Shown: piece after piece, positions 3,927 to 32,376 of the stretch | Layout: each line of letters starts with the position of its first letter | Position numbering within the stretch: the first letter of the stretch is position 1 | Assembly: GCA_903875465.1 (NCBI GenBank) | Contig: CAIQWB010000108.1 | Span: 1,725 to 65,724, forward strand | DNA: 64,000 nt | Direction: 5' to 3' | From: an uncultured Verrucomicrobia subdivision 3 bacterium | GTDB taxonomy: Bacteria; Verrucomicrobiota; Verrucomicrobiia; Limisphaerales; UBA11358 | The notes under the pieces: generated by a model | Database searches by the model: none | What the model was told of the DNA's origin: nothing | What the model saw: the letters and a program-made list of their open reading frames with translations, nothing else | Made by a program: the position numbers and the translations under genes

Positions 3927-3981
3927 GGTTAAATTAAAATTTAAGATTGTGTTTTAAGACAATTTTTCGGTTGTTCGGTTT

Positions 3982-4245: not shown

Positions 4246-4246
4246 G

Positions 4247-13611: not shown

Positions 13612-13683
13612 GCCAGTTTAGCTCAGTGGTAGAGCAACGGTTTTGTAAACCGTCGGTCGTCGGTTCGACTCCGACAACTGGCT
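13612..13683 (+). tRNA. tRNA-Thr (anticodon UGU), CCA not encoded
   Basis: Hand-folded cloverleaf: GCCAGTT/TA/GCTC-AGTGGTA-GAGC/A/ACGGT-TTTGTAA-ACCGT/CGGTC/GTCGG-TTCGACT-CCGAC/AACTGGC/T, followed by CCC. Confidence 0.9.
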
Positions 13684-13743
13684 CCCGCCGTCGCGCTGCG
13701 CGCTATGGCGGGCAGGCCCGCTTTCGGAATTGGGAAGAGTTTA

Positions 13744-13763
13744 GGCTGGCAGGCCAGCCTTTT
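13744..13763 (+). terminator. short hairpin plus T-run downstream of tRNA-Thr(UGU)
   Basis: GGCTGGC-ag-GCCAGCC followed by TTTT. Confidence 0.4.
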
Positions 13764-13781
13764 AAGCAAGGGAAGGGGACT

Positions 13782-14030
13782 GTGACGAGCTTTCATTACG
13801 TTTACATTCTGCAGTCACTATCGAAACCAGATCAGGTTTATACGGGCAGGACGGAGGACTTGAAAAGGCGGCTGGCGGAGCATAATGCGGGAAGGGTGCC
13901 GCATACTTCCAAATTTGTTCCCTGGGAAATTCGGGCGGCTACAGCGTTCAAGGATCTTGAAAAGGCAGTCGCCTTTGAATATTACCTCAAAAGCGGGTCA
14001 GGCCGGGCGTTTCTGCGCCGGCATTTTTGA
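13782..14030 (+). CDS. small GIY-YIG nuclease-superfamily protein
   Basis: GTG start preceded by GGAAGGGGA. Shows FHYVYILQSLSKPDQVYTGRTEDLKRRLAEHN (GIY-YIG motif) and a conserved E in AFEYYLK. The ORF-track start at 13626 lies inside the tRNA and is rejected. Confidence 0.75.
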   Translation: MTSFHYVYILQSLSKPDQVYTGRTEDLKRRLAEHNAGRVPHTSKFVPWEIRAATAFKDLEKAVAFEYYLKSGSGRAFLRRHF

Positions 14031-16909: not shown

Positions 16910-16919
16910 ACCTGCTGTC

Positions 16920-18167
16920 ATGCCCACGTTCAAATACAAAGCGTTGCAAGCCAATGGCACGGTGGCCGAAGGGGTGCTGGAAGCCTCGGGGCGGCCGGAA
17001 GCCCTGCGGTTGATGGAAACCCGGGGGCTGCGGCCGGTCAATTTGGTGGAGAAGGCGGGCGCGGCGGCGAAAAAATCGGCGGCGTTGCCAGCGGTTCCGG
17101 CAGGTTTGAACTTCAAGTTCGAATCCAAAAAAATCCCGGCCAAGTCGCTGGAAAACTTTACGCGGCTGCTGTCCAGTTTGCTCGCCGCCGGCGTGCCGTT
17201 GAGCCGGGCGATGGTCATTCTGTACAAGGATAACAAGAACCCGGTCGTGGCCGCCAAATGGAAGGAATTGCACGACCTGGTGGTGGACGGCATGGCGTTG
17301 TCAGATGCGATGGCCAAATCGCCGGACACCTTTCCACGGGTGTACACGGCCATGGTGCAGGCCGGGGAAATGGGCGGCTTTCTGGATGTGGTGCTGGCGC
17401 AAATCGCGGATTTTCAACAGCGCGAAAAGGAGCTGAAATCCAAGGTGTCCACCGCGATGATTTACCCGTTGATCCTGCTGTTGCTGGCGCTGGTGGTGCT
17501 GACGGTGCTGCTGGTGTTTTTCATTCCCAAATTTCAAAAAGTGTTTAACAGCGTCCACGGCTCGCTGCCGCTGATCACGCAGGTGATCATCGGGGCCAGC
17601 CACATTCTCCGCTCCTACGGCCTGTTTGTGCTGATCGGGGTGGTGGGGGTGGGGGCGCTGCTGCGCACCTGGTTTGTGTCGGAAAAAGGCAAGCGCGTGT
17701 GGGAACTGATCGTGCTGCGCTCCCCGCTGGTGGGACCACTGATTGCCGAGTTTGCCATGGCGCGGTTTTGCCGCATGCTGGGCACCCTGCTGGGCGCGGG
17801 GGTGCCGCTGATCCATGGGTTGAACGTGGCGCGCAAATCCATTGGCAACCAAATTCTGGTGGATGCGGTATCCCAGGCGATTGAACGGGTGCAACAGGGC
17901 GGGCGGCTGGGCGAAAGCCTGGCGGAATGCAAGCGGTTGTTTCCCAGTTCGGTGCTGGAAATGATCTCGGTGGCGGAGGAGAGCGGCCGGCTGGATGTGG
18001 AGCTGGTGCGCATTGCCGCGGTGACCGAGGTGGATTTGGACCGTAATTTGAAGACCGCCGTGGCGTTTGCCGAGCCCCTGATGCTGTTTCTGATCGCGGG
18101 CTTCATCGGCCTGATTTTCATCGGCATGTTGCTGCCGATTTTCTCGCTCCAAGATTACATCAAATAA
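16920..18167 (+). CDS. gspF: type II secretion inner-membrane platform protein GspF
   Basis: Start MPTFKYKALQANGTVAEG (internal Met of ORF 16890). Two T2SSF repeats (FTRLLSSLLAAGVPL..., FCRMLGTLLGAGVPL...). Confidence 0.9.
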   Translation: MPTFKYKALQANGTVAEGVLEASGRPEALRLMETRGLRPVNLVEKAGAAAKKSAALPAVPAGLNFKFESKKIPAKSLENFTRLLSSLLAAGVPLSRAMVILYKDNKNPVVAAKWKELHDLVVDGMALSDAMAKSPDTFPRVYTAMVQAGEMGGFLDVVLAQIADFQQREKELKSKVSTAMIYPLILLLLALVVLTVLLVFFIPKFQKVFNSVHGSLPLITQVIIGASHILRSYGLFVLIGVVGVGALLRTWFVSEKGKRVWELIVLRSPLVGPLIAEFAMARFCRMLGTLLGAGVPLIHGLNVARKSIGNQILVDAVSQAIERVQQGGRLGESLAECKRLFPSSVLEMISVAEESGRLDVELVRIAAVTEVDLDRNLKTAVAFAEPLMLFLIAGFIGLIFIGMLLPIFSLQDYIK

Positions 18168-18188
18168 AATCGAACCTGATCAACGACT

Positions 18189-18635
18189 ATGAAATTAACT
18201 CATGCCTCAACCCCCGCCCGGTCCAGCTTGCGCGCGCAGGCGTTCACGCTGGTGGAAATGCTGCTGGTCATCACCATCATCGGCATTCTGGCGGCGCTGG
18301 TGGTGCCCAAGATGATGGGGCGCAGCGAACAGGCGCGGCAGGCGGCCGCGCGGTCGGATTTGTCCTCGATCAAAACCGCGCTGGACGCGTTTGAAGTGGA
18401 TAATGGCTACTATCCCAAGGGCAAGAACGGCCTGGGGGACTTGATCCAGATGCCGCGCGATGCCAAGGCGTGGCACGGACCTTATTTGGACGCGGTGCCG
18501 CAGGATCCGTGGCAAAATCCGTATATCTATGAATTTCCCGGCAAGCACAATCCCAGCAGCTATGACCTGTATTCGGCGGGTCCGGACGGGAAGCCCGGCA
18601 ATGATGATGACATTGGCAACTGGCAATCCAAGTAA
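18189..18635 (+). CDS. gspG: major pseudopilin GspG
   Basis: Prepilin N-terminus AFTLVEMLLVITIIGILAALVVPK. GspG signature QARQAAARSDLSSIKTALDAFEVDNGYYP...WHGPYL...DPWQNPY...SAGPDGKPGNDDDIGNW. Confidence 0.9.
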   Translation: MKLTHASTPARSSLRAQAFTLVEMLLVITIIGILAALVVPKMMGRSEQARQAAARSDLSSIKTALDAFEVDNGYYPKGKNGLGDLIQMPRDAKAWHGPYLDAVPQDPWQNPYIYEFPGKHNPSSYDLYSAGPDGKPGNDDDIGNWQSK

Positions 18636-19125
18636 CCGCCGCGCGGCGTTCACCCTGATCGAGTTGATCCTGGTCATGACGTTGCTGGTGGTGGTGGTCT
18701 CGATGGTCGCGCCGAAGCTGTCGGGTTTTATCCGGGGGCGGGCCCTGGATTCCGAAGCCCGGCGCTTTCAGGCGCTGGCCCATGCGGGGCAGAGCCGGGC
18801 GGTCTCCGAGGGTGTGCCCATGGTGCTGTGGCTGGATGCCAAGCAGGGCAGCTATGGCATGGAAGCGGAAACGCCGGCGGCGAGCGGGGATCCGAAGGCG
18901 GAGCGGGTGAGCCTGGCGGATAATTTGCAGATGGCGGTGGTGAATACGGGCGGCAGCGCGCCCACGACCTTTCACAACCTGCCGGCCATTCGCTTTCAGG
19001 CGGATGGGTCGGTGGATGAAACCAGCCCGCACACGGTGTGCCTGACCGATGCGGCCGGGACATCGTTGTGGCTGGTGGAATTAAAGAACCGGACAGGTTA
19101 TGAAATTCGCGATACCAGCAACTAA
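18607..19125 (+). CDS. gspH: minor pseudopilin, GspH-like
   Basis: Prepilin N-terminus RRAAFTLIELILVMTLLVVVV followed by LSGFIRGRALDSEARR. Three consecutive ATGs at 18601, 18604 and 18607 leave the start ambiguous. Overlaps the 3' end of gspG. Confidence 0.6.
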   Translation: MTLATGNPSNRRAAFTLIELILVMTLLVVVVSMVAPKLSGFIRGRALDSEARRFQALAHAGQSRAVSEGVPMVLWLDAKQGSYGMEAETPAASGDPKAERVSLADNLQMAVVNTGGSAPTTFHNLPAIRFQADGSVDETSPHTVCLTDAAGTSLWLVELKNRTGYEIRDTSN

Positions 19126-19531
19126 GCGCGGCACGGCGGGGTTCACCCTGGCCGAGGTGCTGGCGGCGATGCTGTTTCTCGCGCTGGTGATTCCGGCGGC
19201 CGTGGAGGCCCTGCATGTGGCGGGCCTGGCCGGGGAAGTGGCGGCCCGCAAGAGCGCGGCCGCGCGGGTGGCCGACCGGGTCTTGAATGAGAGCCTGGTG
19301 CTGACGAACTGGACGGGCGGCACGCACAGCGGGACGGTGGCGGAAGGCGCGTTGGAGTTTCGCTGGACCCTGACCAGCCAGAACTGGCCGCAGGACGCGA
19401 TGCAGTTGCTGACGGCCGAGGTGAAGTTTTCGGCCCAGAACAAAGATTATTCGGTGAAAATGTGCACGCTGGCGAATGTCCAGCAGATGCCCGGGGCCAC
19501 GACCCCGGGGATGGCAGGCAGGCAACCTTGA
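19100..19531 (+). CDS. gspI: minor pseudopilin, GspI-like
   Basis: 143 aa. Prepilin N-terminus GTAGFTLAEVLAAMLFLALVI. Size and position fit GspI. Confidence 0.55.
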   Translation: MKFAIPATKRGTAGFTLAEVLAAMLFLALVIPAAVEALHVAGLAGEVAARKSAAARVADRVLNESLVLTNWTGGTHSGTVAEGALEFRWTLTSQNWPQDAMQLLTAEVKFSAQNKDYSVKMCTLANVQQMPGATTPGMAGRQP

Positions 19532-20217
19532 AACTGACATTACATCACGGGCGCGGGACGCGGGCCTTCACGCTGATCGAAATGATCCTGGCGGTGGGGA
19601 TTACCGCGATCGTGCTGCTGGCCATCAGCGCCACGCTGTTCACGGCGCTGCATTTGCGCGACAGCACCCAGGCGCTGGTGGATGCCGAGCAGCCGCTGGA
19701 CCAGACCGGCACGTTCTTGCGGCGGGATTTGCAAGGCGCGATGGTGCCCACGACCAACGGGATATTTACGGGAGATTTTAAAGTGGGCAACGTCACCAGC
19801 CCGGGCATCGGCCAGCCGGTGGCCCTGGAACTCTACACGACCACCGGGGCGTTGAGTGACACGAAGCCCTGGGGTGAGGTGCAAAAAGTGACGTATGAAT
19901 TGAAGCCGTCCACGGATCAAAGCCAGCCGGGCAAGGATTTGGTGCGCAGTGTCACCCGCAACATTCTGGCCACCGCCACCGTGGATGTGGATGACCAATT
20001 GCTGCTGGGCGGGGTGCAGGACTTGAAAGTGACTTGCTACGACGGCAACCAATGGCAGGAAGCCTGGGATACCACCGATCTCACATCCGCCACCACGAAT
20101 CTCCCGCAGGCGGTGAAGGTGGAAATTCAAATGGCCGGCGCCGCCAACGGCAACACGCGGCCCATGCCGATCGAATTCTTGGTGCCGATCGATTCGCAAT
20201 CCCGGACGAATTCCTGA
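19528..20217 (+). CDS. gspJ: minor pseudopilin, GspJ-like
   Basis: Prepilin N-terminus TRAFTLIEMILAVGITAIVLL. C-terminal ...GNQWQEAWD...LPQAVKVEIQM resembles GspJ. Start inferred as a TTG overlapping the gspI stop (TTGA). The ORF-track ATG at 19462 would add 22 non-pilin residues. Confidence 0.6.
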   Translation: MKLTLHHGRGTRAFTLIEMILAVGITAIVLLAISATLFTALHLRDSTQALVDAEQPLDQTGTFLRRDLQGAMVPTTNGIFTGDFKVGNVTSPGIGQPVALELYTTTGALSDTKPWGEVQKVTYELKPSTDQSQPGKDLVRSVTRNILATATVDVDDQLLLGGVQDLKVTCYDGNQWQEAWDTTDLTSATTNLPQAVKVEIQMAGAANGNTRPMPIEFLVPIDSQSRTNS

Positions 20218-20218
20218 C

Positions 20219-21607
20219 ATGCAACTCACCCCCCCAGCCCAGCTTCAGCACACCCGGCGCCAGCGCGCCTCGGTCCTGATCATTGTGCTGTGGATTTGCA
20301 TCGGCCTGGTGAGCATCACCCTATACTTTGCGAATTCGATGACCTATGAATTGCGCGCGGCGGACAACCGGGTTACCGGCCTGACCGCCGACCAGGCCAT
20401 TGAGGGGGCGGCGCGCTATGTCAGTTTCGTGCTGTCCAACTTTGCCACCAATGGTGCGGTGCCGAACAACACCCAGTTTTCCTGCGCGGGCGTCAACATT
20501 GGGGATGCCCGGTACTGGATCATTGGCCGGGATCCGGCCGCCACGCCGTCGGTGACGGAACCTTATTTCGGGCTGATTGACGAGGGGTCCAAATTGAACC
20601 TCAACCGGGCGGGCACCAACACGCTTTCCTACCTGCCCAACATGAACTATGACGTGGCCCAGGCCATGGTGAACTGGCGCAATACCAATGCCAACCCGGA
20701 CCTGACGTATGCCCAGTATGGTTATAGTGAGAAGGAAGCTCCGTTTGAAACGGTGGATGAACTGCGGCTCGTGGATGGCGTGACCCTGGAGGTGCTGCTC
20801 GGCGAGGATCTCAACCGCAACGGCGTGCTGGACGCCAATGAGAAGGACCAAAACGGGAACGGCCAGCTTGACCCCGGATTGATGGAATATCTTACCGTGT
20901 ACAGCCGCGAACCGAATTTTCACCTGGATGGCTCCAGCCTGACGAATGTGAACACCGCGCGGCGCGCGCAATTGCTTTCTTTGTTCCAGAACGCGAATGT
21001 CAACAATGCCACCGCGCTGGCCACGGCCATCGATACCTACACCCATCCCACGCCGCCGGCCACCGGCCAGACGTTCGCCAGTCTGCTGGGATTTTACCTG
21101 TTTTGCCAGAGCCGGGGAGGCATGACGTCCGCGCAATTTGCCACCATTAACAATGACATTACGATCACGGCCACCAACGTCAATTACGTCACCGGCCGGG
21201 TGAATATCAACACCGCCTGTGCCGACGTGTTGACCGCACTGTTCATGGGCAGTGGAATCGCCGAGCAGACGGCGGAAAGCGCGGCGCAGACCATGGTTAC
21301 TTATCGCGACCAAAATCCCAACTATTTAGATTCCATCGGGTGGATGGCAGATGCCCTCGGCACCGGCAATCAAGTGGTGACCACCATGGCCGCCTCCGAC
21401 AAACTGACGACCCACAGCTATCAGTTCACCGCCGACATTGCGGCGGTGGGCAATTATGGCCGCGGCTACCGGCGGGTGAAATTTATTTTTGATGTGAGTG
21501 AGGGGGCCCCAAAAATTCGGTATCGTCAGGACTTGAGCCGGCTGGGCTGGGCCCTGGGCACCAAGGTCCGCGAAAATCTCAATCTGGTGGCGCAGGCAAC
21601 GAAATGA
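20219..21607 (+). CDS. gspK: minor pseudopilin GspK
   Basis: 462 aa. Non-cleavable hydrophobic N-terminus RASVLIIVLWICIGLVSI, the IDEGSKLNLN motif, a Ca-binding-like DLNRNGVLDANEKDQNGNGQLD, and an HhH-like VNINTACADVLTAL. Confidence 0.75.
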   Translation: MQLTPPAQLQHTRRQRASVLIIVLWICIGLVSITLYFANSMTYELRAADNRVTGLTADQAIEGAARYVSFVLSNFATNGAVPNNTQFSCAGVNIGDARYWIIGRDPAATPSVTEPYFGLIDEGSKLNLNRAGTNTLSYLPNMNYDVAQAMVNWRNTNANPDLTYAQYGYSEKEAPFETVDELRLVDGVTLEVLLGEDLNRNGVLDANEKDQNGNGQLDPGLMEYLTVYSREPNFHLDGSSLTNVNTARRAQLLSLFQNANVNNATALATAIDTYTHPTPPATGQTFASLLGFYLFCQSRGGMTSAQFATINNDITITATNVNYVTGRVNINTACADVLTALFMGSGIAEQTAESAAQTMVTYRDQNPNYLDSIGWMADALGTGNQVVTTMAASDKLTTHSYQFTADIAAVGNYGRGYRRVKFIFDVSEGAPKIRYRQDLSRLGWALGTKVRENLNLVAQATK

Positions 21608-23061
21608 ACACGATTTTGAAAGTGAAAACCGCCCGACATAAAAAATTGACGAGCCTGCTGGCGCTGGTCCTGGATGGCACCCGCCTGACGGGGGTGGTCC
21701 TCCGGCGCAATAATGACGCCTTGCAACCACTGCAAACTCTGGCCGTCACACTCGCGCTCGATCCACTCACCGCCGCGCCCGAATTGGTGGGGCGGGAAAT
21801 TCGCAACCACCTGGATGCCGCCGGCGTGCGCGAACGTTTTTGCGTGGTGGGCGTGCCCTTGAAATGGGTGCTGACCGCGCAAACCGAACTGCCGGACCTG
21901 CCGGCGGAGGATGCGGCCAGCCTGCTGCAAATGGAAACCGAGCGGGGTTTTCCCGCCGATGTGACCACGCTGCACATTGGCCAGTCGGCCTGCGCCCTGG
22001 CAGCGGGCAAACAATTGGTGACCCTGGCGGCGATTCCCAACAGCCAGATCGGATTATTGGAGCAGGTGCTGGTGGCGGCGAAATTGAAGCCGGTGAGTTT
22101 TGCCCTCAGCCTGCCGGCTTTGCAACCGCCCGCCGGGCCCAAGGCAGCGGGGGTGCTGGCTTTGCTGGTGGGGGAAACGCAGGTGGGCTTGCAGATTACG
22201 ACCCAGGGCGGGGTGGCGGCCCTGCGCGGCCTGGAGGGGGCCGTGGAAAACGAATCCGGACACCCCGTCCTGCATGCCGGGCTGGTTTCCCGGGAGGCCC
22301 GCATTACGCTGGGCCAGTTGCCGGCGGAACTCCGGCAGTCGGTGAAACGCATTCGGATTTTTGGGCCGAAGGACCTCGCCCGGCAACTGGCGGACGAAAT
22401 GGAACTGCGGTTTGAACCTTTGGGTCTGGAAGTAGAAGTCGTCACGGCCTATGCCCCCGCGGAGTTTGGGTTGGAACTGCCCCCGGCGCCATCGCTTTCC
22501 GCCGCCTTCAGCCTGGCCGCGTGGGCGCTGGCCGGCCAGGCGCCCGTCTTTGAGTTTCTGCCGCCCAAACCCACCTTGTTCCAGCAGCTGGCGGCCAAAT
22601 ATTCCTCGGGCCGGTTACAGACCATTGGCGCGGCGGCGGCCATCCTGCTACTGCTCGTGGGCGGGCTCTTCGCGGTGCAGGAATATCAGCTGGTCCAGTT
22701 GCGTTCCGAATGGGCGGCCATGAAGCCCAAAGTGGATGAATTGAACACCCTCCAGGGGTTGATTCGGCAGTACCGCCCGTGGTTCGATGATTCGTACACG
22801 GCGTTGAGCATCCTGCGTGAATTGTCCATCGCCTTCCCCGAGGATGGCACGGTCACCGCGAAAACCATTGAGGTGCGGGATGGCAATATCGTGAGTTGCG
22901 CCGGTACGGCGAAGGATAACACGGCCTTGCTGCGAACACTCGGGCAGTTGCGCGAGGCCGAGCAGGTTTCGGATTTGAAAGTGGAGCAGATTCGCGGCAA
23001 ATCGCCGATGCAGTTCACGTTTGAATTTCACTGGGGTACTGGAGGTCGTCATGAAAATTGA
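21604..23061 (+). CDS. gspL: GspL-like assembly protein (PilM-like cytoplasmic domain + TM + PilN-like periplasmic domain)
   Basis: 485 aa. ATGA overlap with gspK. One central TM segment (IGAAAAILLLLVGGLFAV). The assignment rests on position and topology; sequence motifs are weak. Confidence 0.55.
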   Translation: MNTILKVKTARHKKLTSLLALVLDGTRLTGVVLRRNNDALQPLQTLAVTLALDPLTAAPELVGREIRNHLDAAGVRERFCVVGVPLKWVLTAQTELPDLPAEDAASLLQMETERGFPADVTTLHIGQSACALAAGKQLVTLAAIPNSQIGLLEQVLVAAKLKPVSFALSLPALQPPAGPKAAGVLALLVGETQVGLQITTQGGVAALRGLEGAVENESGHPVLHAGLVSREARITLGQLPAELRQSVKRIRIFGPKDLARQLADEMELRFEPLGLEVEVVTAYAPAEFGLELPPAPSLSAAFSLAAWALAGQAPVFEFLPPKPTLFQQLAAKYSSGRLQTIGAAAAILLLLVGGLFAVQEYQLVQLRSEWAAMKPKVDELNTLQGLIRQYRPWFDDSYTALSILRELSIAFPEDGTVTAKTIEVRDGNIVSCAGTAKDNTALLRTLGQLREAEQVSDLKVEQIRGKSPMQFTFEFHWGTGGRHEN

Positions 23062-23587
23062 GAATCGTCAGCAATTATTAGTTGTGGTTACCGTCGCCGT
23101 CCTGGCTTTGCTGGTCCTGGACAGCGTGGTATTTGAGCCCCTCGTGGGTTGGTATGGCACGCGGGCCAAGCAAATCACCGAGTTGCGCAACCAGGTGAAA
23201 AATGGCAAAGGCCTGCTGGCCCGGTCGCAGGGGATCCGGGGGCATTGGAAGGAAATGCTGGCCAACACGCTGCCGAACAAGTCCTCCGTGGCGGATCAAA
23301 AGGTCATCAGCGCCTTTGACCAGTGGTCCCGCGACACCGGGGTGGAAATCACGGATATCATGCCGCAATGGAAGAACGATACCGATGATTATCAGACCCT
23401 GAACTGTCGGGTGGAGGCCTCCGGCAACCTGGCTGCCCTGAGCCAGTTTTTGTATGACGTGGAAAAAGGCCAGCTGGCGATCAAACTGGATTCCTTGGAA
23501 TTAAGCTCCAAAGACAACGGCGGTCAAACCCTCAACCTGGGACTGCAAGTCAGCGGTCTGGCCCTCATCAACCCCACCCAGCCATGA
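23051..23587 (+). CDS. gspM: GspM/PilO-like bitopic protein
   Basis: Start at an ATG preceded by GGAGG (23041..23045). N-terminal TM segment LLVVVTVAVLALLVL, then a coiled segment and an alpha/beta domain. The call is based on position. Confidence 0.45.
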   Translation: MKIENRQQLLVVVTVAVLALLVLDSVVFEPLVGWYGTRAKQITELRNQVKNGKGLLARSQGIRGHWKEMLANTLPNKSSVADQKVISAFDQWSRDTGVEITDIMPQWKNDTDDYQTLNCRVEASGNLAALSQFLYDVEKGQLAIKLDSLELSSKDNGGQTLNLGLQVSGLALINPTQP

Positions 23588-24192
23588 ACCTGAAACCCCT
23601 TTGCCACGGCACCCTCCTGGTCCTGATACTGGCGGGCGGCAGCCTTGCCCCGGGCCAGTCCCAAACGCCGGGTCCCACGGACTACAGCGGCTTCAGCCGG
23701 TTTGTTACCAGCCGGAATATTTTTAATCCCGAGCGCTTTCCGCACAGCGGCCGCAATGCCTCGCGGCCGCGGCCGACCAACCGCCCCCGACGGGCGGCGC
23801 TGGCCTTTGCTTTTGTGGGAGCGATGGAATACGGCAAGGGGATCTTTGCCTTTTTCGACGGGAACAATGATGATTACCGCAAGTCCCTGCAGGTGAATGG
23901 CAAGCTTGCCGGTTACACGGTGGAAACGATTACCCTGGGGGGCGTGCAACTGGTGGCCGGCACCAACTCGGTGTTTCTCACGGTCGGCGCCCAAATGCAG
24001 CAGGGCACGGATGGCACTTGGGACAAGGCCGAGGAACCCGTGGATTTTTCCGGACGGACGGACGGTTCCGCGCCGGTGACGACGACCGGCGGTGGCAGCG
24101 ACACCGCCCCGGCCGCCCCGGCCGCGCCCGCCGGGCAAATGAGTGATACCCTTAAACGTTTAATGATGCTTAGACAACAGGAGAACAAATGA
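23584..24192 (+). CDS. secreted Pro/Arg-rich protein with small beta-domain, GspC/PilP-like (secretin-coupling candidate)
   Basis: ATGA overlaps at both ends. Signal peptide MNLKPLCHGTLLVLILAGGSLA. The C-terminal segment FVGAMEYGKGIFAFFDGNN..LQVNGKLAGYTVETITLGGVQL resembles PilP/GspC HR-type beta domains. Confidence 0.3.
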   Translation: MNLKPLCHGTLLVLILAGGSLAPGQSQTPGPTDYSGFSRFVTSRNIFNPERFPHSGRNASRPRPTNRPRRAALAFAFVGAMEYGKGIFAFFDGNNDDYRKSLQVNGKLAGYTVETITLGGVQLVAGTNSVFLTVGAQMQQGTDGTWDKAEEPVDFSGRTDGSAPVTTTGGGSDTAPAAPAAPAGQMSDTLKRLMMLRQQENK

Positions 24193-25646
24193 ACAAATTA
24201 ATGTGGCAAACCCTCCCGGCCCTGTGTGTGGCGGGATTATTGATTTCCGCCCGCGCCCAGGATAACAACCCACCGCCGCCGCCGGACACGAACAACGTGC
24301 CCGAGACCCCCGGCCAGCCCGGGCCGGGTCCAGGTGAAATGCCGTTGCCGCCGGATGCGGCGGCCCAGCCAGCGGAAGGTGATGGCACGACTACTAATGG
24401 GGTCGCCGGCACCAACGGCACGCCCGCGGCGGTGGCTGCGCCGACCGTGGCCGAGGACCGGCCGGCCGCCCGGTCCGCGAGCCTGACCAATACTTCGCCG
24501 GATGCTTTTATGCCGCCCGCGGCGGCCGGCACCAATGTGGATGCGCTGCGGCTGAATTTCCGCAATGCGCCACTCGAAATGGTCTTGAATTACCTGAGCG
24601 ATGCGGCCGGCTTTATCATTGTGCTGGACACCCAGGTGCACGGCTCGGTGAGTGTGATCAGCAGCCATCCCATGACCCGCGATGAGGCGGTGGATTTGCT
24701 GAATGCCGTCCTCAATAAAAATGGTTATGCCGCCATTCGCGATGGCCGCACACTGACGATTGTGGACAAGAACGATGCCAAGACCCGCAACATTCCGGTC
24801 AAGGTGAGCAACGATCCGGATAAAATCCCCAACAATGCGGAGATTGTCACCCAGATTATTCCCATCCGCTTTGTGGAAGCCGAACAACTCGCCAAGGATT
24901 TGTCGCTGTTTGTCTCCCCACAGGCCACGATCGTGGCGAATGAGGCGGGCAATTCGATTGTGGTCACGGACACCCAGTCGAACATCCGCCACCTGGTGGA
25001 AATCATCAAGGCGATCGACAGCAGTGCCGAAGGCGAAACCCAGATCCGCGTGTTTCACCTGGCGCATGCCAGCCCGGCTGATGTCGCCAGTGAATTGGGT
25101 CAAATCTTTCCTTCAACCAGCGGTTCGAGCGGAGCCACCCAGTCGCCCATCCGTTTCGGTGGTGGTGGCGCGGGCGGTCCGGGCGGATTTTTTGCCCGGA
25201 TGATGGGCGGTGGGGGTGGTTTTGGCGGCGGTGGCGGCGGCGGAGCCGCCGCCGGCGGGGGCAGCAACTCCCGCATGCAGAAGCAAACCCAGGTGACGGC
25301 GGTGGCCGATCCGCGCACGTCGTCCGTAATTGTGACCGCCTCGGCGGATTTGATGCAGGAAATCATTGGCATGATGACCCAGCTCGACGTCCCCTCCCAG
25401 CGAGATCAGAAGGTGTTTGTGTATCATCTGGATCATGGCGATCCCCAGCAAACCCTCCAAGTATTGCAAAACATGTTTGGCGGCAGCAGTTCCACCAGCT
25501 CGCGGGGTGGCAGTTCCTCCAGCACCAGCAGCGCCCTGGGCAACCGGCAAACCCAAAATGCCACTTCCACGGGCACCAGCACCAGCACCGGCATCGGTGG
25601 TTCTGGTTTGGGTGGCGGCGGCGGCGGCGGTCGCGGCGGTTTATAA
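24189..25646 (+). CDS. gspD: secretin GspD, N-terminal part only (N0 + ring-building N domains, no secretin core)
   Basis: Signal peptide, Pro-rich linker, N0 (LNFRNAPLEMVLNYLSDAAGFIIVLD) and N domains (IRFVEAEQLAKDL...NSIVVTDTQSNIRHLVEIIKAID; IRVFHLAHASPADVASELGQIF...VIVTASADLMQEIIGMMTQLD). It ends after half an N domain plus a Ser/Gly tail, with a TAATAA double stop. Confidence 0.8.
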   Translation: MNKLMWQTLPALCVAGLLISARAQDNNPPPPPDTNNVPETPGQPGPGPGEMPLPPDAAAQPAEGDGTTTNGVAGTNGTPAAVAAPTVAEDRPAARSASLTNTSPDAFMPPAAAGTNVDALRLNFRNAPLEMVLNYLSDAAGFIIVLDTQVHGSVSVISSHPMTRDEAVDLLNAVLNKNGYAAIRDGRTLTIVDKNDAKTRNIPVKVSNDPDKIPNNAEIVTQIIPIRFVEAEQLAKDLSLFVSPQATIVANEAGNSIVVTDTQSNIRHLVEIIKAIDSSAEGETQIRVFHLAHASPADVASELGQIFPSTSGSSGATQSPIRFGGGGAGGPGGFFARMMGGGGGFGGGGGGGAAAGGGSNSRMQKQTQVTAVADPRTSSVIVTASADLMQEIIGMMTQLDVPSQRDQKVFVYHLDHGDPQQTLQVLQNMFGGSSSTSSRGGSSSSTSSALGNRQTQNATSTGTSTSTGIGGSGLGGGGGGGRGGL

Positions 25647-25674
25647 TAAGCAATCCCTCTGAATTTTAACATTT

Positions 25675-26937
25675 ATGAAAAAGAACGTTTATAACCAGAT
25701 TTTTGGCGCGATCGCCATTGGCCTGTTTAGCACCCTGCTGGCGGCCCAGGCCCAGCCGCGATTTGGCGGCGGCGGTGGTGGCTTTGGTGGTTTTGGTGGC
25801 GGTTTTGGTGGCGGTGGCTTCGGGGGCAACCGGGGCGGCGCCAGTTCCAGCACCACCGGCCAGTACAACAATAACGGCCAGGTGGGTTCCGCCACTTTCG
25901 CCGTGGATCCCGATACCCACACCATCACGGTGATTGCCGACGAGGAAACCGCCCGGCAGGTCGCCTCAGTCATCAGCAGTCTCGACCAGCCCAAGCGGCA
26001 GGTGCTCATCAAGGTGGTGTTTTTGGAAGTGGACCACAATAATTCCGTGGATCTCGGGCTGGAGGGCGGCTGGACCGGGCCCGTTGGTAATAACAGTGTG
26101 AGCGCCGCGACGGCGTTTCCCTTGACACAATTAAGTGGCACGGCCACCCCCACGCTGAATGCCCTCGGTGGTGCGGCCGGCACGGTGCCCAATTCCTCCG
26201 GGGCCTCCGGCGGCGGTTTCTCGCAAATCGTGGGCAAGGATTTTCAGGTGACGTTGCAAGCCATTGCCAAGGCCGGCAAGGCCGAAATTCTCTCCCGTCC
26301 CTCCATCATGGCGCGGGACGGGCAGCTGGCGGAAATCGTTTCCGGCCAGAGCATTTATTTACCCAGTGGCGTGAGCTACGGAACCATCGGGGCGAGCACC
26401 GCCAGTTCCACCACGATCCCCACCATTAACGGCTCCTATCAAAATGTGGGTATTCAACTCGATGTCACCCCGTTTATTGGCGCCAACAACATGGTGGAAA
26501 TGATCCTCCAACCGCAAAACACCTCGGTGGACACCTCCTCGCCGGGCCAGGAAATCACCGGTGGCAGCGTCTTCTCCTCGGCGATCTATGCGCCGAATAT
26601 CAACAAGAGCTCGGCCAATACGGTGGTGGTCACCCCGGATGCCCAAACGGTGGTGATCGGCGGGTTGATCTCCAATAGCAAGGCCGTGAACAACAATCAG
26701 GTGCCCCTGCTGGGGGACATTCCCATCCTGGGCAATCTCTTTAAGCACAAAAGCACCAGCAACGAGAAAAAGGAACTGGTGATCTTCATCACCCCCCACA
26801 TTCTCCAAAGCCCCGAACAACTGGCGGGCGTGTATGGCACAGAAAAGGGCTCCGCATCATCCTTTGTGACCAATTCCTTCACGGAACAGGAACTGGATCA
26901 TTTTCTGGACAAAGTGCCCGTGAAAAAGAGCCGGTAA
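25675..26937 (+). CDS. gspD: secretin GspD, C-terminal part (half N domain + secretin pore domain) with its own signal peptide
   Basis: Signal peptide MKKNVYNQIFGAIAIGLFSTLLAAQA, then a G/F-rich stretch, then TITVIADEETARQVASVISSLD. Secretin core: QVLIKVVFLEVD..., AEILSRPSIMARDGQLAEI, VVIGGLI...VPLLGDIPILGNLFK...ELVIFITPHIL. Confidence 0.85.
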   Translation: MKKNVYNQIFGAIAIGLFSTLLAAQAQPRFGGGGGGFGGFGGGFGGGGFGGNRGGASSSTTGQYNNNGQVGSATFAVDPDTHTITVIADEETARQVASVISSLDQPKRQVLIKVVFLEVDHNNSVDLGLEGGWTGPVGNNSVSAATAFPLTQLSGTATPTLNALGGAAGTVPNSSGASGGGFSQIVGKDFQVTLQAIAKAGKAEILSRPSIMARDGQLAEIVSGQSIYLPSGVSYGTIGASTASSTTIPTINGSYQNVGIQLDVTPFIGANNMVEMILQPQNTSVDTSSPGQEITGGSVFSSAIYAPNINKSSANTVVVTPDAQTVVIGGLISNSKAVNNNQVPLLGDIPILGNLFKHKSTSNEKKELVIFITPHILQSPEQLAGVYGTEKGSASSFVTNSFTEQELDHFLDKVPVKKSR

Positions 26938-26983: not shown

Positions 26984-28582
26984 ATGAACGCCCCCCGTCG
27001 CAGCTCCCTGGTTTATGGGCTATTGCTGCTCGTTTGGGTGCTCGTGGTGGGCTGGCAGGTCGGGCAGCATTACCGGGTGCAGGAGACGGCCAAAACCGAC
27101 CTGCGCAACCGTTCCAAGGAAATCGCCAACACTCTGAGCGCGGTGATGCGGGCGATGCGGTTTCGCGGGGGCGTTTTGCAGGAGCGGCTGGAGCCGGTGT
27201 TGAATGAGCTGGTCAACGGCCGCACCAACCAGCTGGTGAAATCCAGTGAACTCCTCTCCGTGGTGCTGCTGAACACCGCCAGCGAACCGCTGGTCAGTGT
27301 GGGGGCGCCCATTGACTTTTCGAATCCGGAAATTTTGCAGGCGGGCGAGCATTGGGCCGGCGGCACGGTTATCTTTGTCAATCCCATCGAAGGGGCCAAT
27401 GTTTCCCCGGATAGCACCAACGGTTCGGCCACGGTGGTCATCCCGTTGCGTGATTTCACCAATGCCCTGCGCGGCGCGGGCCAGGATTTTCCGCGCCGGG
27501 ACCGTCCGGGTCCGGGGCCTGATCGGGCACTGCCGGCACCAGACCAACCGCCCACCAATGAATTCCCCGCGCATGGCAGCAATAACCCGGCAGCCACCGG
27601 CACCGATGGGCCGCCACCACCGGCCGGCGGGGCAGGGGATTCCCGGTTCCGGGGCAATCGCGATGCTAACCGGCGCCCGCCGTGGCTGCGCTGGATGAGC
27701 GAGGATGATTACAAGACCCTGGTGCAAAAGCACGAACTGCACGGTCTCGTGCTGGCCATGTCCACCGAGAAATACCGTGCCACCAGCGAGGATGATTTGT
27801 GGCTGCGCTATAGTATCGCCTTTTTTGCCGGTATTTCCGCCATCGGCCTCGGCCTGGCCTGGCGCAGTATTTCCAAATCCTCGGAATTGCAAATCCGCCT
27901 GATTCGCGCCAGCGAGCTGAATTCTCATCTGCGGGAAATGAACCTGGCCGCCGCCGGCCTGGCCCATGAAACCCGCAATCCCCTGAATATTATCCGGGGC
28001 ATGGCCCAAATCCTTTCCAAACAGCCCAGCGCGACCCCGGAAATCCAGGAAAAATCCTCGGCCATCGTCAATCAGACCGACAAGGTCACGGCCCAGCTCA
28101 ACGAATTCATCAATTACTCCCGTCCCCGCGAGGTTCGTCGCACCCGCCTGGCCCTGACCTCCGCCATCAACGAAGTGGTGCGCACCCTGGGCTTTGACAT
28201 CGAGGAAAAGCAACTCACGGTTGAGACGCTCGGCGACCCACTCCTGATCGAGGCCGACGAGCAATTGCTCCGGCAGGTCCTGTTCAACCTCATTCTCAAC
28301 GCCATTCAGGCCGCCGAAATGAACGGCCACATCCAAATTGTCACCCGCAAGTCCGGGGCCGCCGAGGCGGCGTTGGAAGTGCGTGACAATGGCCCCGGCG
28401 TACCGCCGGAGAATCGCCAGGAAATTTTCAAACCCTACTTCACCACGAACCAAAAAGGCACCGGCCTGGGGCTGGCGGTCGTCCAGCAAATTGTCCTGGC
28501 GCACGGTTGGGAAATCGCCTGTCTGCCCAACGAGCCCAAAGGCGCCATTTTCCGCATCTACCACCTGAAGTTGCTGGCTTAA
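26984..28582 (+). CDS. membrane sensor histidine kinase (NtrB/PilS-like)
   Basis: 532 aa. N-terminal TM segment, an extracytoplasmic region with a Pro-rich stretch, a second TM segment, His box LAHETRNPLNII, and N/G boxes (LILNAIQA, DNGPGVP, GTGLGLAVV). Confidence 0.85.
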   Translation: MNAPRRSSLVYGLLLLVWVLVVGWQVGQHYRVQETAKTDLRNRSKEIANTLSAVMRAMRFRGGVLQERLEPVLNELVNGRTNQLVKSSELLSVVLLNTASEPLVSVGAPIDFSNPEILQAGEHWAGGTVIFVNPIEGANVSPDSTNGSATVVIPLRDFTNALRGAGQDFPRRDRPGPGPDRALPAPDQPPTNEFPAHGSNNPAATGTDGPPPPAGGAGDSRFRGNRDANRRPPWLRWMSEDDYKTLVQKHELHGLVLAMSTEKYRATSEDDLWLRYSIAFFAGISAIGLGLAWRSISKSSELQIRLIRASELNSHLREMNLAAAGLAHETRNPLNIIRGMAQILSKQPSATPEIQEKSSAIVNQTDKVTAQLNEFINYSRPREVRRTRLALTSAINEVVRTLGFDIEEKQLTVETLGDPLLIEADEQLLRQVLFNLILNAIQAAEMNGHIQIVTRKSGAAEAALEVRDNGPGVPPENRQEIFKPYFTTNQKGTGLGLAVVQQIVLAHGWEIACLPNEPKGAIFRIYHLKLLA

Positions 28583-30702
28583 AGCCCGGGCGTCATTAAC
28601 CGGAAAAACCGGCTGCCGGTCGCGGCGGAGTTGGTTGCCCGGCGGGTGGTTCCATCACTGCCAATGCTGCCGTTAAAGCCGGTCCAGCCCCGGGGATTCA
28701 AATTGGTATTCTGCTGCAGGCTCCAATTGGCCCAGCTGGCCGGCCACGAGACGACGACATTGGGGCCGGAGGCATTCAGTTTCAGCAGCGGTAAAAAGCC
28801 GGCGGCGTTGGTCAGGACGGTGAGGGTGCCATCATTCCAATCACCGCTGATCAAATCGATCCGGCCATCACTGTTCACATCGGCTGCGGTGAGCGACTCT
28901 GGTCCGCTGCCGACATTCAGCACGGCGTAAGTGCCGAAACTGCCCGCGCCATTGTTGGTAAGCACGGCGAGCGTGTTGTTGCCTTGGTTCGCGCTCATTA
29001 AATCGGGCCAGCCGTCCCCATTGACATCCGCCACCGTCACGGCATAGGCACTGTTACCGGCCGGATACGTTCCGGCAAACCCAAAGCCGCCGGTCCCGCT
29101 ATTCGTGAGGACCGTCAATCCCGAATCCAGAATCAAATCAGGTTTGCCATCACCATTGATATCCGCGGCGGCCACGCAGGAAATGCCCGCAGCCAGGCTG
29201 GGCAAGGGGGCCGATACCAGGCCGCCCGCGCCATTGTTGGTCCACAGGGTCAGGAAGACGTGGGATCCGGTGGCGGCGCAGAGGACGTCCGGTTTGCCGT
29301 CACCATTGACATCCGCGGTGGCCACCCATTGGGGATTATCCGCACCCGGGGTGCCCGCCTGGCAAGTCGCATTGGAGGCAAAAACACCACCAACCCGGTT
29401 GGACCAGACCGTGAAGGAGGCCGAAAGGGAGTTCGCGCAGATCAGATCCAGCCGGCCATGCCCAAATAAATCAGCGGCGCACACCGAATGGGGCTGGGTG
29501 CCTGAACCTTCCGCCAGCGTGGCCGCAAGGGCGAATAGGCCATGACCGTCATTAGTCAGGACCGTCAATGAATTGCCGGAATTATTGGCCGTGATTAAAT
29601 CGGGCTTGCCGTCATTGTTCACATCCGCAGCCAGGACCTGGTAGGGAAAGGACCCGACGGCGTAGCTGGCATTGGAGGCAAAAATGCCGCCGCCGCTGTT
29701 GGTCCATACGTACAAATAGCTGGGATTGCCCCGCACGGTAATCAAATCCGGCCGGCCGTCGCCATTCACATCGGCGGTGGTGACCGAGCGCACAAAAGGA
29801 CCATTGACCAGGAATGCGGAGAGGGTGAAGGGGGCCTGGGCATTGGTGGGGGCGGGAAGGGCGGTAATTAAGATTTCGCCATGGGGCGATCCATCGGGGC
29901 TGGCAACGCCGGCCACCGCCGGGAAAACCACAATAGCCGAGGGCTCTACGAGGGAACCGCCCCCGCCGCCGCCCAGGTTGTTGCCCCAGCCGCCGCCCCC
30001 GCCCCCGCTGTAACCCCCACCGCCCCCACCACTGCCAACATAGGAACTGCCGCCGCCCCCACCGCCGCCGCCGTAGCCGCCCCGGGCAACTCCCGAACCG
30101 CCGCCCGCGCCACTTAAATAACTGCCCCCGCCGCCGCCGTCCCCCGACCCGCCGCTGCCCAGAAAACCACCGCCGCCGCCGCCGGTATAGGTGCCGTTGC
30201 TGCCGGCGTTCCCCCCGGAACCGCTGGTGCCGCCGGCACCGCCCCCGGGCGTGCCGCCCACCCCGCCGCCGCCGGCAGTGGTTACCGCCGCATCACTTCC
30301 CCCGCTGGCTGCCGCCCCGCCCCCGCCGCCTGCGACCAACAGGGGTGAGCTGCCATTGACCACGAAACTGCCGCCCCCGCCACCCCCGCTGCCCAAGGCC
30401 GATTTTCCACTACTGCCAACCAGCAGGGTGAGGGTGGTGGGCCCGGAAAAGGCAAATCGGGCGGACATTTTGGCACCACGGCCACCACTGTTGCCAAATA
30501 GCATGCTGCCACCGCCTTGCGCGCCATAGGCCGTGATGTCATACAGGCCGGAGGGTAAAGTGATATTCGTCGTCGACCCGCTAAACAGATACGTATTCGT
30601 CTGCGCCCAACCGGTCAGTGGGGGGTAAAACCAAATCAGTGCCACCAGACCAATCAGCATGGCTGGCCAGCTTCTTGAATTTAACAAATATGTGGGTTTC
30701 AC
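28579..30702 (-). CDS. secreted glycine-rich-domain (ALK/LTK GRD-like, Pfam Gly_rich type) + seven FG-GAP/VCBS repeat propeller + C-terminal beta-domain protein
   Basis: GTG start. Signal peptide MKPTYLLNSRSWPAMLIGLVALIWFYPPLTGWA. N-terminal domain YLFSGSTTNITLPSGLYDITAYGAQGGG...LLVGSSG...GGGGGGSFVV..PLLVAGGGGG. Seven repeats of the type (T/A)ADVNGDGKPDLI. The tail ...VVSWPASWANWSLQQNTNL..WTGF...RFFRL is common in PVC secreted proteins. Confidence 0.8.
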   Translation of the reverse strand: MKPTYLLNSRSWPAMLIGLVALIWFYPPLTGWAQTNTYLFSGSTTNITLPSGLYDITAYGAQGGGSMLFGNSGGRGAKMSARFAFSGPTTLTLLVGSSGKSALGSGGGGGGSFVVNGSSPLLVAGGGGGAAASGGSDAAVTTAGGGGVGGTPGGGAGGTSGSGGNAGSNGTYTGGGGGGFLGSGGSGDGGGGGSYLSGAGGGSGVARGGYGGGGGGGGSSYVGSGGGGGGYSGGGGGGWGNNLGGGGGGSLVEPSAIVVFPAVAGVASPDGSPHGEILITALPAPTNAQAPFTLSAFLVNGPFVRSVTTADVNGDGRPDLITVRGNPSYLYVWTNSGGGIFASNASYAVGSFPYQVLAADVNNDGKPDLITANNSGNSLTVLTNDGHGLFALAATLAEGSGTQPHSVCAADLFGHGRLDLICANSLSASFTVWSNRVGGVFASNATCQAGTPGADNPQWVATADVNGDGKPDVLCAATGSHVFLTLWTNNGAGGLVSAPLPSLAAGISCVAAADINGDGKPDLILDSGLTVLTNSGTGGFGFAGTYPAGNSAYAVTVADVNGDGWPDLMSANQGNNTLAVLTNNGAGSFGTYAVLNVGSGPESLTAADVNSDGRIDLISGDWNDGTLTVLTNAAGFLPLLKLNASGPNVVVSWPASWANWSLQQNTNLNPRGWTGFNGSIGSDGTTRRATNSAATGSRFFRLMTPGL

Positions 30703-31008: not shown

Positions 31009-32376
31009 ATGCCGTCTGAATCGCGCAAAAACCAACTGGAAGTGCCCCGGATCCTGGTCGTGGATGATGATCCCGGCCAGCGCAGCCTGCTGCATTCCTT
31101 TTTGAGCAGTCAGGGCTTCCTCATTACCCTGGCCGAGTCCGGCGAGCGGGCGCTGGCTCTGCTGCCCAAGGGCAATTTTGCCATGATGATTTCTGATGTC
31201 CGCATGCCCGGGCTTTCCGGTTTGGAAACCCTCCGGCTGGCGCGCCATGATTTTGCCACCCTCCCGGTGCTGCTGGTCACCGCCTTCCCGGACATTCGCG
31301 ACACCGTGGCCGCCATGCGCGACGGCGCGGTCAATTACCTGGCCAAACCCATTGATCTCGATGAACTGCTGGCCAGCGTGCGCTCGGCCATTGGCCTGTC
31401 CGTCAGCGCCCCGTTGCGCTATGATGCGGAAAAACAGCTCCCGGAGTCCGTGGTGGCCCGCAGTCCCCTGACCCAGGCGGTCTTCCGGGATGCCTCGTTG
31501 ATTGCCCCCTCCGATACCCGGGTGCTCATCACCGGGGAAAGCGGCGTGGGCAAGGAAATTCTCGCCGATGTGATTCATGGCTGGAGTCTTCGCGCGAGCG
31601 GCCCGATTATCAAAGTAAATTGTGCGGCCATCCCGGAAAACTTGCTGGAGAGCGAATTATTCGGCCACGAGAAAGGCGCTTTTACCGGCGCCCACGCCCA
31701 GCGCATCGGGCGGTTTGAGGAGGCGGATCGGGGCACCATTCTCCTTGATGAAATCGCCGAAATGTCGCCTGCGCTGCAATCCAAGTTGTTGCGCATCACC
31801 CAGGACGGCCGGTTCCAGCGCGTGGGTTCCAACCGGGAAATTCATACCCATGCCCGCCTGCTGGCCGCGACGAACCGCAACCTGGAGACCGAGGTGAAGC
31901 ACGCCCGGTTCCGGGAGGATTTGTTTTACCGGCTCAATGTGGTGGAACTGCATCTGCCCGCCTTGCGCGAGCGGCGGGAGGATATTTTACCGCTGGCCAG
32001 CCAGTTCGTCACGGAATTTGCCCGGGGCCGCGCCCGCTTGTCCGATCCCACCGCCCGCTGCTTGGAAAAATACGCCTGGCCGGGCAATATCCGTGAATTG
32101 CGCAACGCCATGGAGCGGGCCGTGCTCTTGTCGCGGGGCGAATTGATTCTGCCCGAGCACCTGCCCGCGCGGGTTTTGGAGGCCGGCAAATCGGCCCTGG
32201 CGGCGGAGCCCAATGATTTGGAACGCCTGGAGGAAATCGAGCGGCAGGCCATTTTCCAAACTTTGAAGCAGCACCAGTCCAATCGTACCGAAACCGCCAA
32301 GGCCCTGGGCATCAGCCGGCGCACGCTGATATACAAACTGCAACGCTTCCGCCAGCAAGGTTTCCAGGAGGAATGA
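31009..32376 (+). CDS. sigma54-dependent response regulator (NtrC/PilR family: REC-AAA+-Fis HTH)
   Basis: 455 aa. REC domain (ILVVDDDPGQ...MISDVRMPGLSG), Walker A GESGVGKE, the sigma54-contact motif GHEKGAFTGA, and a C-terminal HTH NRTETAKALGISRRTL. Confidence 0.92.
   Translation: MPSESRKNQLEVPRILVVDDDPGQRSLLHSFLSSQGFLITLAESGERALALLPKGNFAMMISDVRMPGLSGLETLRLARHDFATLPVLLVTAFPDIRDTVAAMRDGAVNYLAKPIDLDELLASVRSAIGLSVSAPLRYDAEKQLPESVVARSPLTQAVFRDASLIAPSDTRVLITGESGVGKEILADVIHGWSLRASGPIIKVNCAAIPENLLESELFGHEKGAFTGAHAQRIGRFEEADRGTILLDEIAEMSPALQSKLLRITQDGRFQRVGSNREIHTHARLLAATNRNLETEVKHARFREDLFYRLNVVELHLPALRERREDILPLASQFVTEFARGRARLSDPTARCLEKYAWPGNIRELRNAMERAVLLSRGELILPEHLPARVLEAGKSALAAEPNDLERLEEIERQAIFQTLKQHQSNRTETAKALGISRRTLIYKLQRFRQQGFQEE

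Follow-up and report, generated by a model that had tools for sequence, protein, structure and literature searches.

Type II and type III secretion, type IV pili, and the export of filamentous phages share a secretin as their gate in the outer membrane, and to our knowledge every secretin that has been studied structurally is a single chain. In canonical GspD, the secretin belonging to type II secretion systems (T2SSs), the signal peptide leads directly into the N0 domain, and the module made of N0, N1, and N2 contacts the inner-membrane platform. Here we describe a GspD-type secretin that is encoded by two adjacent genes, open reading frame 1 (ORF1, GspD-N) and ORF2 (GspD-C), in a 64,000-nt stretch of contig CAIQWB010000108.1 from an uncultured Verrucomicrobia subdivision 3 bacterium; the whole of this stretch is referred to below as the window. 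In single-chain secretins, N3 and the secretin domain make up a conserved C-module in which N3 lies directly under the pore (PMC10550240). It is within N3 that the new pair is divided.

The order of domains is the same as in the canonical single-chain GspDs of E. coli K12 (5wq7), V. cholerae (5wq8), P. aeruginosa (XcpQ, 5wln), and K. pneumoniae (PulD, 6hcg), and, as in these, the genes stand in a gsp operon with GspE-M and jointly cover the whole of TIGR02517, the NCBIfam model of GspD. Unlike canonical GspD, however, the secretin comes as two polypeptides with the break inside N3 and a second signal peptide, and its chains carry long Gly/Phe- and Ser-rich disordered termini as well as a 95-aa Pro-rich linker before N0. 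Short stand-alone secretins (RcpA/CpaC of Tad systems, phage pIV) differ in another respect: they work without a partner gene for N0-N2, whereas genes of the ORF2 type are paired in the window and in all ten related loci.

The closest described case of a secretin in two genes is the "split secretin" RhcC1 (NolW)/RhcC2 of the Rhc-type type III secretion systems (T3SSs) of rhizobia and P. syringae, the "functional significance" of which "is not known" (PMC3574062, PMC3973906). As with ORF1 and ORF2, secretin functions are spread over two genes, and the Rhc T3SS is functional; in contrast, the system is a T3SS, and its two genes lie far apart in different operons. On pNGR234a of strain NGR234, the signal peptide of NolW (234 aa; L019 44373..45077) is followed by N0 and one complete Secretin_N domain (positions 1-63 of 69), while RhcC2 (475 aa; L020 7670..9097) is CpaC/RcpA-like, with PF13629 (T2SS-T3SS_pil_N), PF04972 (BON), and PF00263, and its gene adjoins that of a CpaD-like lipoprotein, far from nolW. 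The rhizobial split secretin is not a simple fission, the domain set of RhcC2 being that of a Tad-type CpaC/RcpA. The present pair is unlike NolW/RhcC2 on both sides: pil_N and BON domains are absent from ORF2, and ORF1 closes with half a domain. Because no domain is cut in the rhizobial pair, we regard it as a different architecture that implies no fold complementation. It is the sole precedent that we found; a T2SS secretin split over two genes was not found in the searchable literature. The first-pass annotation of the window, made from the sequence alone, was not aware of such an architecture having been described; split secretin genes are known from the rhizobial T3SS, though of a differing architecture.

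The break in N3 and the two half-domains

ORF1 and ORF2 both lie on the forward strand, in different frames. Their parts are listed below with the evidence in brackets; AF2 stands for AlphaFold2 monomer models and pLDDT for the predicted local distance difference test score.

24189..25646, + strand: GspD-N (ORF1), the secretin N-half, 485 aa (ORF list, Pfam, NCBIfam, 5wq7 alignment)
24189..24257, + strand: predicted Sec signal peptide of ORF1, aa 1-23, cut between ARA and Q (read from the sequence)
24258..24542, + strand: Pro-rich disordered linker before N0, aa 24-118 (composition; pLDDT <50 over aa 21-118)
24552..24785, + strand: N0 domain, aa 122-199 (PF21305, E 8e-15 over aa 122-186; AF2 elements at aa 123-199)
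24846..25028, + strand: N1 domain, aa 220-280 (best PF03958 stretch at aa 221-279; AF2 beta-alpha-beta-beta-alpha)
25041..25385, + strand: N2 domain, aa 285-399 (Secretin_N profile; AF2 elements)
25395..25481, + strand: first half of N3 (beta1-alpha1), aa 403-431, SQRDQKVFVYHLDHGDPQQTLQVLQNMFG (Secretin_N positions 1-25; N3 beta1-alpha1 of 5wq7)
25482..25646, + strand: Ser/Thr/Gly-rich disordered tail, aa 432-485, with the stop codon (homologue alignment, AF2)
25647..25674, + strand: AT-rich intergenic spacer of 28 nt, the first triplet of which is the second TAA (sequence)
25675..26937, + strand: GspD-C (ORF2), the secretin C-half, 420 aa (ORF list, Pfam, NCBIfam, PDB alignment)
25675..25752, + strand: predicted Sec signal peptide of ORF2, aa 1-26, cut between AQA and Q (homologue N-termini; AF2 helix at aa 4-25)
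25753..25872, + strand: Gly/Phe-rich (GGF-repeat) disordered stretch, Ser-rich stretch, and QYNNNGxVG motif, aa 27-66 (alignments; pLDDT <50 over aa 26-69)
25873..25998, + strand: second half of N3 (beta2-beta3-alpha2), aa 67-108 (Secretin_N positions 30-69; 5wq7 residues 280-321; AF2)
25999..26937, + strand: pore-forming secretin core (Pfam Secretin at aa 197-377) and C-terminal helical region (PF00263, E 1.1e-45; PDB)

ORF1 and ORF2 form the end of a complete T2SS operon (GspE-M) and between them contain N0, N1, and N2 complete, N3 as two halves, and the Secretin domain. The pair is a T2SS secretin by content and context, though it consists of two polypeptides rather than one. Pfam finds N0 and two Secretin_N stretches in ORF1, while in ORF2 it finds Secretin_N at profile positions 25-69 only (aa 48-109), followed by Secretin (aa 197-377); the PDB matches of the ORF2 core are GspD and PilQ cores. 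ORF2 has TIGR02517 as its best model. Positions 1-293 of it are matched by ORF1 (198.7 bits) and positions 277-598 by ORF2 (213.2 bits), and each score is below the cut-off of 351.35, only their sum being above it.

On the chain of 5wq7, ORF1 aa 363-437 aligns to residues 199-270, which comprise the end of N2 and beta1-alpha1 of N3, while ORF2 aa 65-108 aligns to residues 280-321, which are beta2-beta3-alpha2 of N3, and this second alignment runs on into the pore domain. Because the two alignments end and start there, we place the break in the alpha1/beta2 loop of N3. The segments also complement each other in the Secretin_N profile: alone, they score 13.9 bits (ORF1, positions 1-25) and 29.6 bits (ORF2, positions 30-69), and when spliced in silico they give a full-length match (positions 1-69) of 45.6 bits (E 8e-12).

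The first-pass annotation had read ORF1 as a signal peptide, N0, complete N domains, and the beta-alpha half of another, a reading borne out by Pfam, TIGR02517, and 5wq7, and had proposed that ORF2 supplies the missing half after a new signal peptide and a G/F-rich stretch and continues into the core. Both half-domains are detectable by profile when Secretin_N (PF03958) and Secretin (PF00263) are run on the two ORFs, and its account of the ORF coordinates, the translations, the TAATAA, and the AT-rich spacer of 28 nt holds. It had also pointed to a Gly-rich insertion in the same loop of the preceding N domain, and we indeed find ~55 Gly/Phe-rich residues of low pLDDT (aa 311-366; 25119..25286) in the alpha1/beta2 loop of N2; without the loop, N2 scores 54.8 bits against Secretin_N positions 1-68.

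Of 114 ORF2 homologues with an evaluable N-terminus, all 114 keep the new signal peptide, at a median length of 26 residues: the n-region contains K or R, the hydrophobic core averages 2.05 or more on the Kyte-Doolittle scale over 11 residues, and the cleavage site is [IVLA]-x-A followed by Q; a signal peptide is also present in all distant split C-halves. That of ORF1 is modeled by AF2 as a helix at aa 3-21, and A23 and Q24 are invariant in the homologue alignment. No promoter or terminator signal above background was found between ORF1 and ORF2.

Some features of composition may be added. The ~95-aa Pro-rich linker between the ORF1 signal peptide and N0 is unusual. The N-terminus of ORF2 and the N2 loop of ORF1 are both Gly/Phe-rich of the (GGF)n type, with a striking tripeptide periodicity. 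We considered whether the GGF repeats are essential and rejected this idea, as distant members are Ser/Thr/Asn-rich or plain Gly-rich and only low complexity is conserved.

Conservation and origin of the split

Homologues were collected as the 120 closest to ORF2 and the 120 closest to ORF1, which come from many independent samples and reach down to ~55-60% identity. The same split is found in all 240: the ORF2 homologues are all 346-455 aa long, and the ORF1 homologues are all 437-519 aa long and contain N0 and Secretin_N only. In ten related loci (L001-L006, L007, L009-L011), an N-half gene adjoins a C-half gene, with spacers of 13-45 nt and varying frames, and in the window and all ten of these loci the gene immediately 5' of the ORF2-type gene is an N-half gene with N0-N2. 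Six of them (L001-L006), from species-representative genomes of which all but one are labeled Verrucomicrobia subdivision 3, have the N-half directly 5' of the C-half with spacers of 27-34 nt and the same kinase downstream. In the window the two genes are offset by +1, in L005 they are in-frame, and other loci show other offsets.

A search with ORF2 against 1.84 billion cluster representatives returned the short split type, complete or as fragments, as its best ~40 matches (38-59% identity), and unsplit secretins of 700-1000 aa show up only from E ~1e-46. Around two dozen full-length distant members consist of a signal peptide, a low-complexity stretch (Gly- or Ser/Thr/Asn-rich), a half-N3, and the core. 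At 42% identity, L007 has a 545-aa N-half with beta1-alpha1, a Ser/Asn tail, and a final F, then a 13-nt spacer with the Shine-Dalgarno sequence AAAGGAG, and the same kinase and regulator thereafter, in the same T2SS synteny. In L009, a metagenome-assembled genome labeled Candidatus Sumerlaeota, the N-half ends with KEQKVFTYTLKYADPETVAEVLQNLF and a Ser/Lys tail, and L010 and L011 are arranged as the window is. Even in the most distant loci, beta1-alpha1 stays at the C-terminus of the N-half.

The taxonomic breadth of the split rests on metagenome proteins and a few source-given names; a genome scan with a single protein gave only six close relatives. Because some labels look wrong, breadth taken from names is to be treated with care. 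The doubtful labels are "uncultured Bifidobacteriaceae" for L003 (CAZUBG010000015.1) and "Candidatus Acidoferrum sp." for the proteins P0203 and P0242.

Between ORF2 and its 99%-identical counterpart in L001, there are 53 synonymous and 5 nonsynonymous differences. Against L002, the ratio of nonsynonymous to synonymous substitution rates (dN/dS) is ~0.14 for ORF1, ~0.1 for beta1-alpha1, and ~0.06 for beta2-beta3-alpha2, values that are approximate, with dS near saturation. As judged from these comparisons, both halves are under purifying selection. Across 40 diverse homologues, conservation of the orphan beta1-alpha1 matches that of the complete N domains, and R405, D406, Q407, V411, D418, L426, M429, and F430 are invariant; its consensus in ORF1 homologues is RDQKVFVYHMNNGDPQQALxVLQNMF, after which come a Ser/Thr-rich stretch, a conserved SAL-x-x-R motif, and a Gly/Ser/Thr-rich end. 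On the other side of the break, ORF2 homologues have a highly conserved QYNNNG(T/Q)VG just before beta2.

These observations bear on whether the two ORFs merely reflect a single-gene gspD that was wrongly sequenced or assembled, or that is decaying as a pseudogene. The junction lies between GGC-rich repeats that assemble badly, the contigs L013-L015 break there, and in L012 the two halves are fused, all of which would suit such an explanation. Against it, the same split is present in hundreds of independent assemblies from many samples, the frame relations differ between loci, the spacer, the start codon, and the full signal peptide are conserved, and dN/dS is far below 1 in both genes. We consider an error or a pseudogene to be effectively refuted.

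The fused gene deserves separate mention, as it counts against the explanation favored here. P0394 is an 847-aa secretin (L012 3001..5544) on a single megahit contig, in a 90% cluster that is otherwise split. Its halves are joined at TTGGCGGCGGCGGC, a (GGC) repeat common to the tail of the N-half and the Gly-rich stretch of the C-half, and stop codon, spacer, signal peptide, and GF stretch are all lost in the fusion. The sibling contigs of this cluster that we inspected (L013-L015) are split and stop at the G-rich junction, in one case with a poly-G end. The fusion is probably a misassembly, possibly a rare deletion or a natural re-fusion; Gly-codon repeats at the junction would make misassembly or deletion easy.

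The adjacency of the genes, whose spacers measure only 13-45 nt, could also suggest programmed recoding, by frameshift or stop read-through, into one full-length GspD. We rejected this explanation because the two ORFs are offset differently from locus to locus. The spacers also differ in length and the stop codons in type, no conserved slippery site was seen on inspection of the spacers, the product would hold a hydrophobic signal peptide midway through a periplasmic protein, and L007 has a Shine-Dalgarno sequence of its own. Recoding is, in our estimation, extremely improbable.

That the split is a genuine and fixed gene fission is thus nearly certain. The first-pass annotation had preferred fission to a sequencing frameshift on the grounds of the new signal peptide and the double stop. 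The preference stands, on the 240 homologues, the ten loci, the varying frames, the signal peptide, and selection; of the related loci, which it had suggested comparing, all ten are split, and both halves are under purifying selection. The argument from the double stop does not stand: it is specific to the window, the 99%-identical L001 and L002-L006 having a single stop, and we discarded it as evidence for fission since it is not conserved.

The closest unsplit homologues, with 34-39% identity to ORF2, are GspDs of the Planctomycetes-Verrucomicrobia-Chlamydiae (PVC) type (for example P0281, P0290, and P0397; relatives are named Tepidisphaeraceae/Phycisphaerae), which are single chains of 814-833 aa without an internal signal peptide. 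Exactly at the split sites, in the alpha1/beta2 loops of N2 and N3, they have Gly/Ser-rich insertions of 60-110 aa: in P0281, P0290, and P0397, a disordered insertion of 90-110 aa occupies the N3 loop, and P0397 has an insertion in the N2 loop as well. Because unsplit relatives carry such insertions in the N3 loop, we place the fission inside a pre-existing disordered loop, which would tolerate chain breaks.

A second kind of split was found one domain earlier. P0296 (588 aa) and eleven relatives of 522-606 aa (P0395, P0396, P0398-P0404, P0408, and P0430) consist of a signal peptide, a Gly-rich stretch, half an N2 (PVNASSDARTNTVVVSGP…IDxNP), a complete N3, and the core, and 95 nt 5' of P0296 lies a 329-aa gene with N0 and Secretin_N. 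These N2-split GspDs of Tepidisphaeraceae-like Planctomycetota resemble ORF1/ORF2 in that the break falls in a Gly-rich alpha1/beta2 loop, the C-half has a new signal peptide and a Gly-rich stretch, and the N-half is adjacent on the 5' side; they differ in that the C-half keeps half of N2 and the whole of N3, and the N-half has only ~329 aa. The nearest relatives of the group are unsplit GspDs named Tepidisphaeraceae/Phycisphaerae (Planctomycetota). Because these relatives are unsplit and belong to a different phylum-level lineage, we conclude that the N2 split arose independently, and secretin splitting seems to have had at least two independent origins among PVC-group bacteria.

Proposed assembly of the two chains

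The explanation that we favor, including the completion of N3 in trans as the coupling mechanism, is likely on the sequence evidence. An ancient, fixed fission of a GspD-type T2SS secretin would have produced GspD-N and GspD-C, which would be co-transcribed as the last two genes of the gsp operon, translated separately, and exported by Sec, each via its own cleavable signal peptide. GspD-C would form the outer-membrane pore with its secretin core and bring only beta2-beta3-alpha2 of N3, while GspD-N would be a soluble periplasmic protein carrying N0-N2, whose C-terminus supplies the missing beta1-alpha1. Assembly would most likely be 1:1, and the N3 fold, completed in trans, would act as a noncovalent latch that holds the N-module (N0-N2) onto the outer-membrane C-module. 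Co-transcription, 1:1 assembly, completion of the fold in trans, and the role of the latch are the parts of this mechanism that we infer, and completion of N3 in trans is the best-supported among the mechanisms that we considered.

The AF2 monomer of ORF2 shows the signal-peptide helix, disorder over aa 26-69, and a beta-beta-alpha unit (strands at aa 73-78 and 83-88, helix at aa 90-104), followed by a beta-rich core. That of ORF1 shows N0, N1, and N2, then the alpha1 helix alone (aa 419-430) and a disordered tail. Some points weigh against our explanation: the confidence of these models is low to moderate (mean pLDDT 58 and 53), beta1 of ORF1 is not predicted as a strand in isolation, and co-transcription is suggested only by the spacing of the genes and the lack of signals between them.

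The absence of a predicted strand for beta1 would also fit a scheme without fold complementation, in which GspD-C is a minimal secretin with a truncated N3 and GspD-N is an independent GspC-like or vestibule-like periplasmic adaptor that contacts the pore, if at all, by other surfaces or by the disordered Gly-rich termini. Functional short secretins without N0-N2 exist (RcpA, pIV, and the CpaC-like RhcC2), and the conserved tail motifs together with the C-terminal aromatic residue could mediate docking of another kind. However, the orphan beta1-alpha1 and beta2-beta3-alpha2 would then each expose hydrophobic core, both are strongly constrained across lineages that are only ~38-42% identical, together they give a full-length Secretin_N match, and the half-plus-half pattern recurs in the independent N2 split. 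An arrangement without complementation is hard to reconcile with the conserved orphan halves and the recurrent pattern, and we consider it unlikely.

The conserved tail end of the N-half might be a peptide that docks, for instance into a PDZ-like pocket or into one on the C-half. The last residue is aromatic in 114/120 ORF1 homologues (F in 84, Y in 30), whereas ORF1 of the window ends in L. Where L001 has TTT, the window has TTA, which gives the L; the distant L007 keeps the aromatic end and L009-L011 do not. We rejected a C-terminal F/Y as a universal docking or beta-signal-like feature, since the final residue is L in the window and I or R in distant loci.

Returning to the completion of N3 in trans, one may ask whether the split secretin is a two-part, reversibly latched machine and, as such, represents a new principle of assembly and gating. 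We regard this as a speculative and rather doubtful extension. If it were true, pore and vestibule would each be put together on its own, for instance with the cell wall between them, and their amounts might differ; the beta1-alpha1 "plug" would complete the N3 ring and so join the two on demand; and the disordered ends together with the N2 loop, up to ~45 segments per 15-mer, would act as a flexible mesh or gasket, either inside the channel or around it.

The occurrence of the split in a large environmental clade, and its having come about twice at equivalent loops, would mean that the ring-building fold of N3 tolerates, and may exploit, assembly from two chains. As a natural dissection of the N-module from the C-module, it bears on how N0-N2 are coupled to the pore, on symmetry mismatch, and on passage through the cell wall, and in GspD-N and GspD-C it supplies, ready to use, two partners with which fold complementation in the periplasm can be studied. 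The split also accounts for the inconsistent annotation of the halves, which appear as "secretin N-terminal domain-containing protein", "hypothetical protein", or "GspD". Because the halves are split and annotated inconsistently, models built for single-gene secretins may miss or under-score T2SSs in Verrucomicrobiota.

The T2SS operon and its neighbors

The genes around the split secretin are as follows.

15158..24192, + strand: upstream T2SS operon, ORFs co-oriented and abutting or overlapping (Pfam/NCBIfam), with the gene starts below
15158: GspE
16890: GspF
18189: GspG
18460: GspH-like protein
19100: GspI
19462: GspJ
20219: GspK
21604: GspL-position protein
23021: GspM/PilO-like protein
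23584: 202-aa protein
26984..28582, + strand: histidine kinase 3' of the split secretin (profile matches; synteny)
31009..32376, + strand: sigma-54 response regulator, partner of the histidine kinase

No second secretin was found in the 64,000-nt window, and no sct genes were found among the ORFs examined around the gsp operon. The 202-aa secreted protein (23584..24192, + strand), which has no Pfam or NCBIfam match, always stands immediately 5' of the N-half gene. Its counterpart in L007 has 198 aa (3757..4353) and has in common with it the motif NIFNP.R and a basic C-terminal helix. This protein may be a partner of the split secretin, of a GspC/GspN-like or pilotin-like kind. The 485-aa protein in the position of GspL (21604..23061, + strand) likewise has no match in Pfam or NCBIfam and is conserved in L002-L006.

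Kinase and regulator are both found after the split secretin in the window, L007, and L009, as is the kinase in L001-L006 and L012-L014, an arrangement that suggests regulation dedicated to this T2SS. Between the two, the window has an opposite-strand gene for a 707-aa, Gly-rich protein with FG-GAP repeats (28579..30702, − strand). Just 5' of the T2SS operon lies a small ORF (13626..14030, + strand) with a GIY-YIG nuclease domain, as judged from a weak match to T5orf172.

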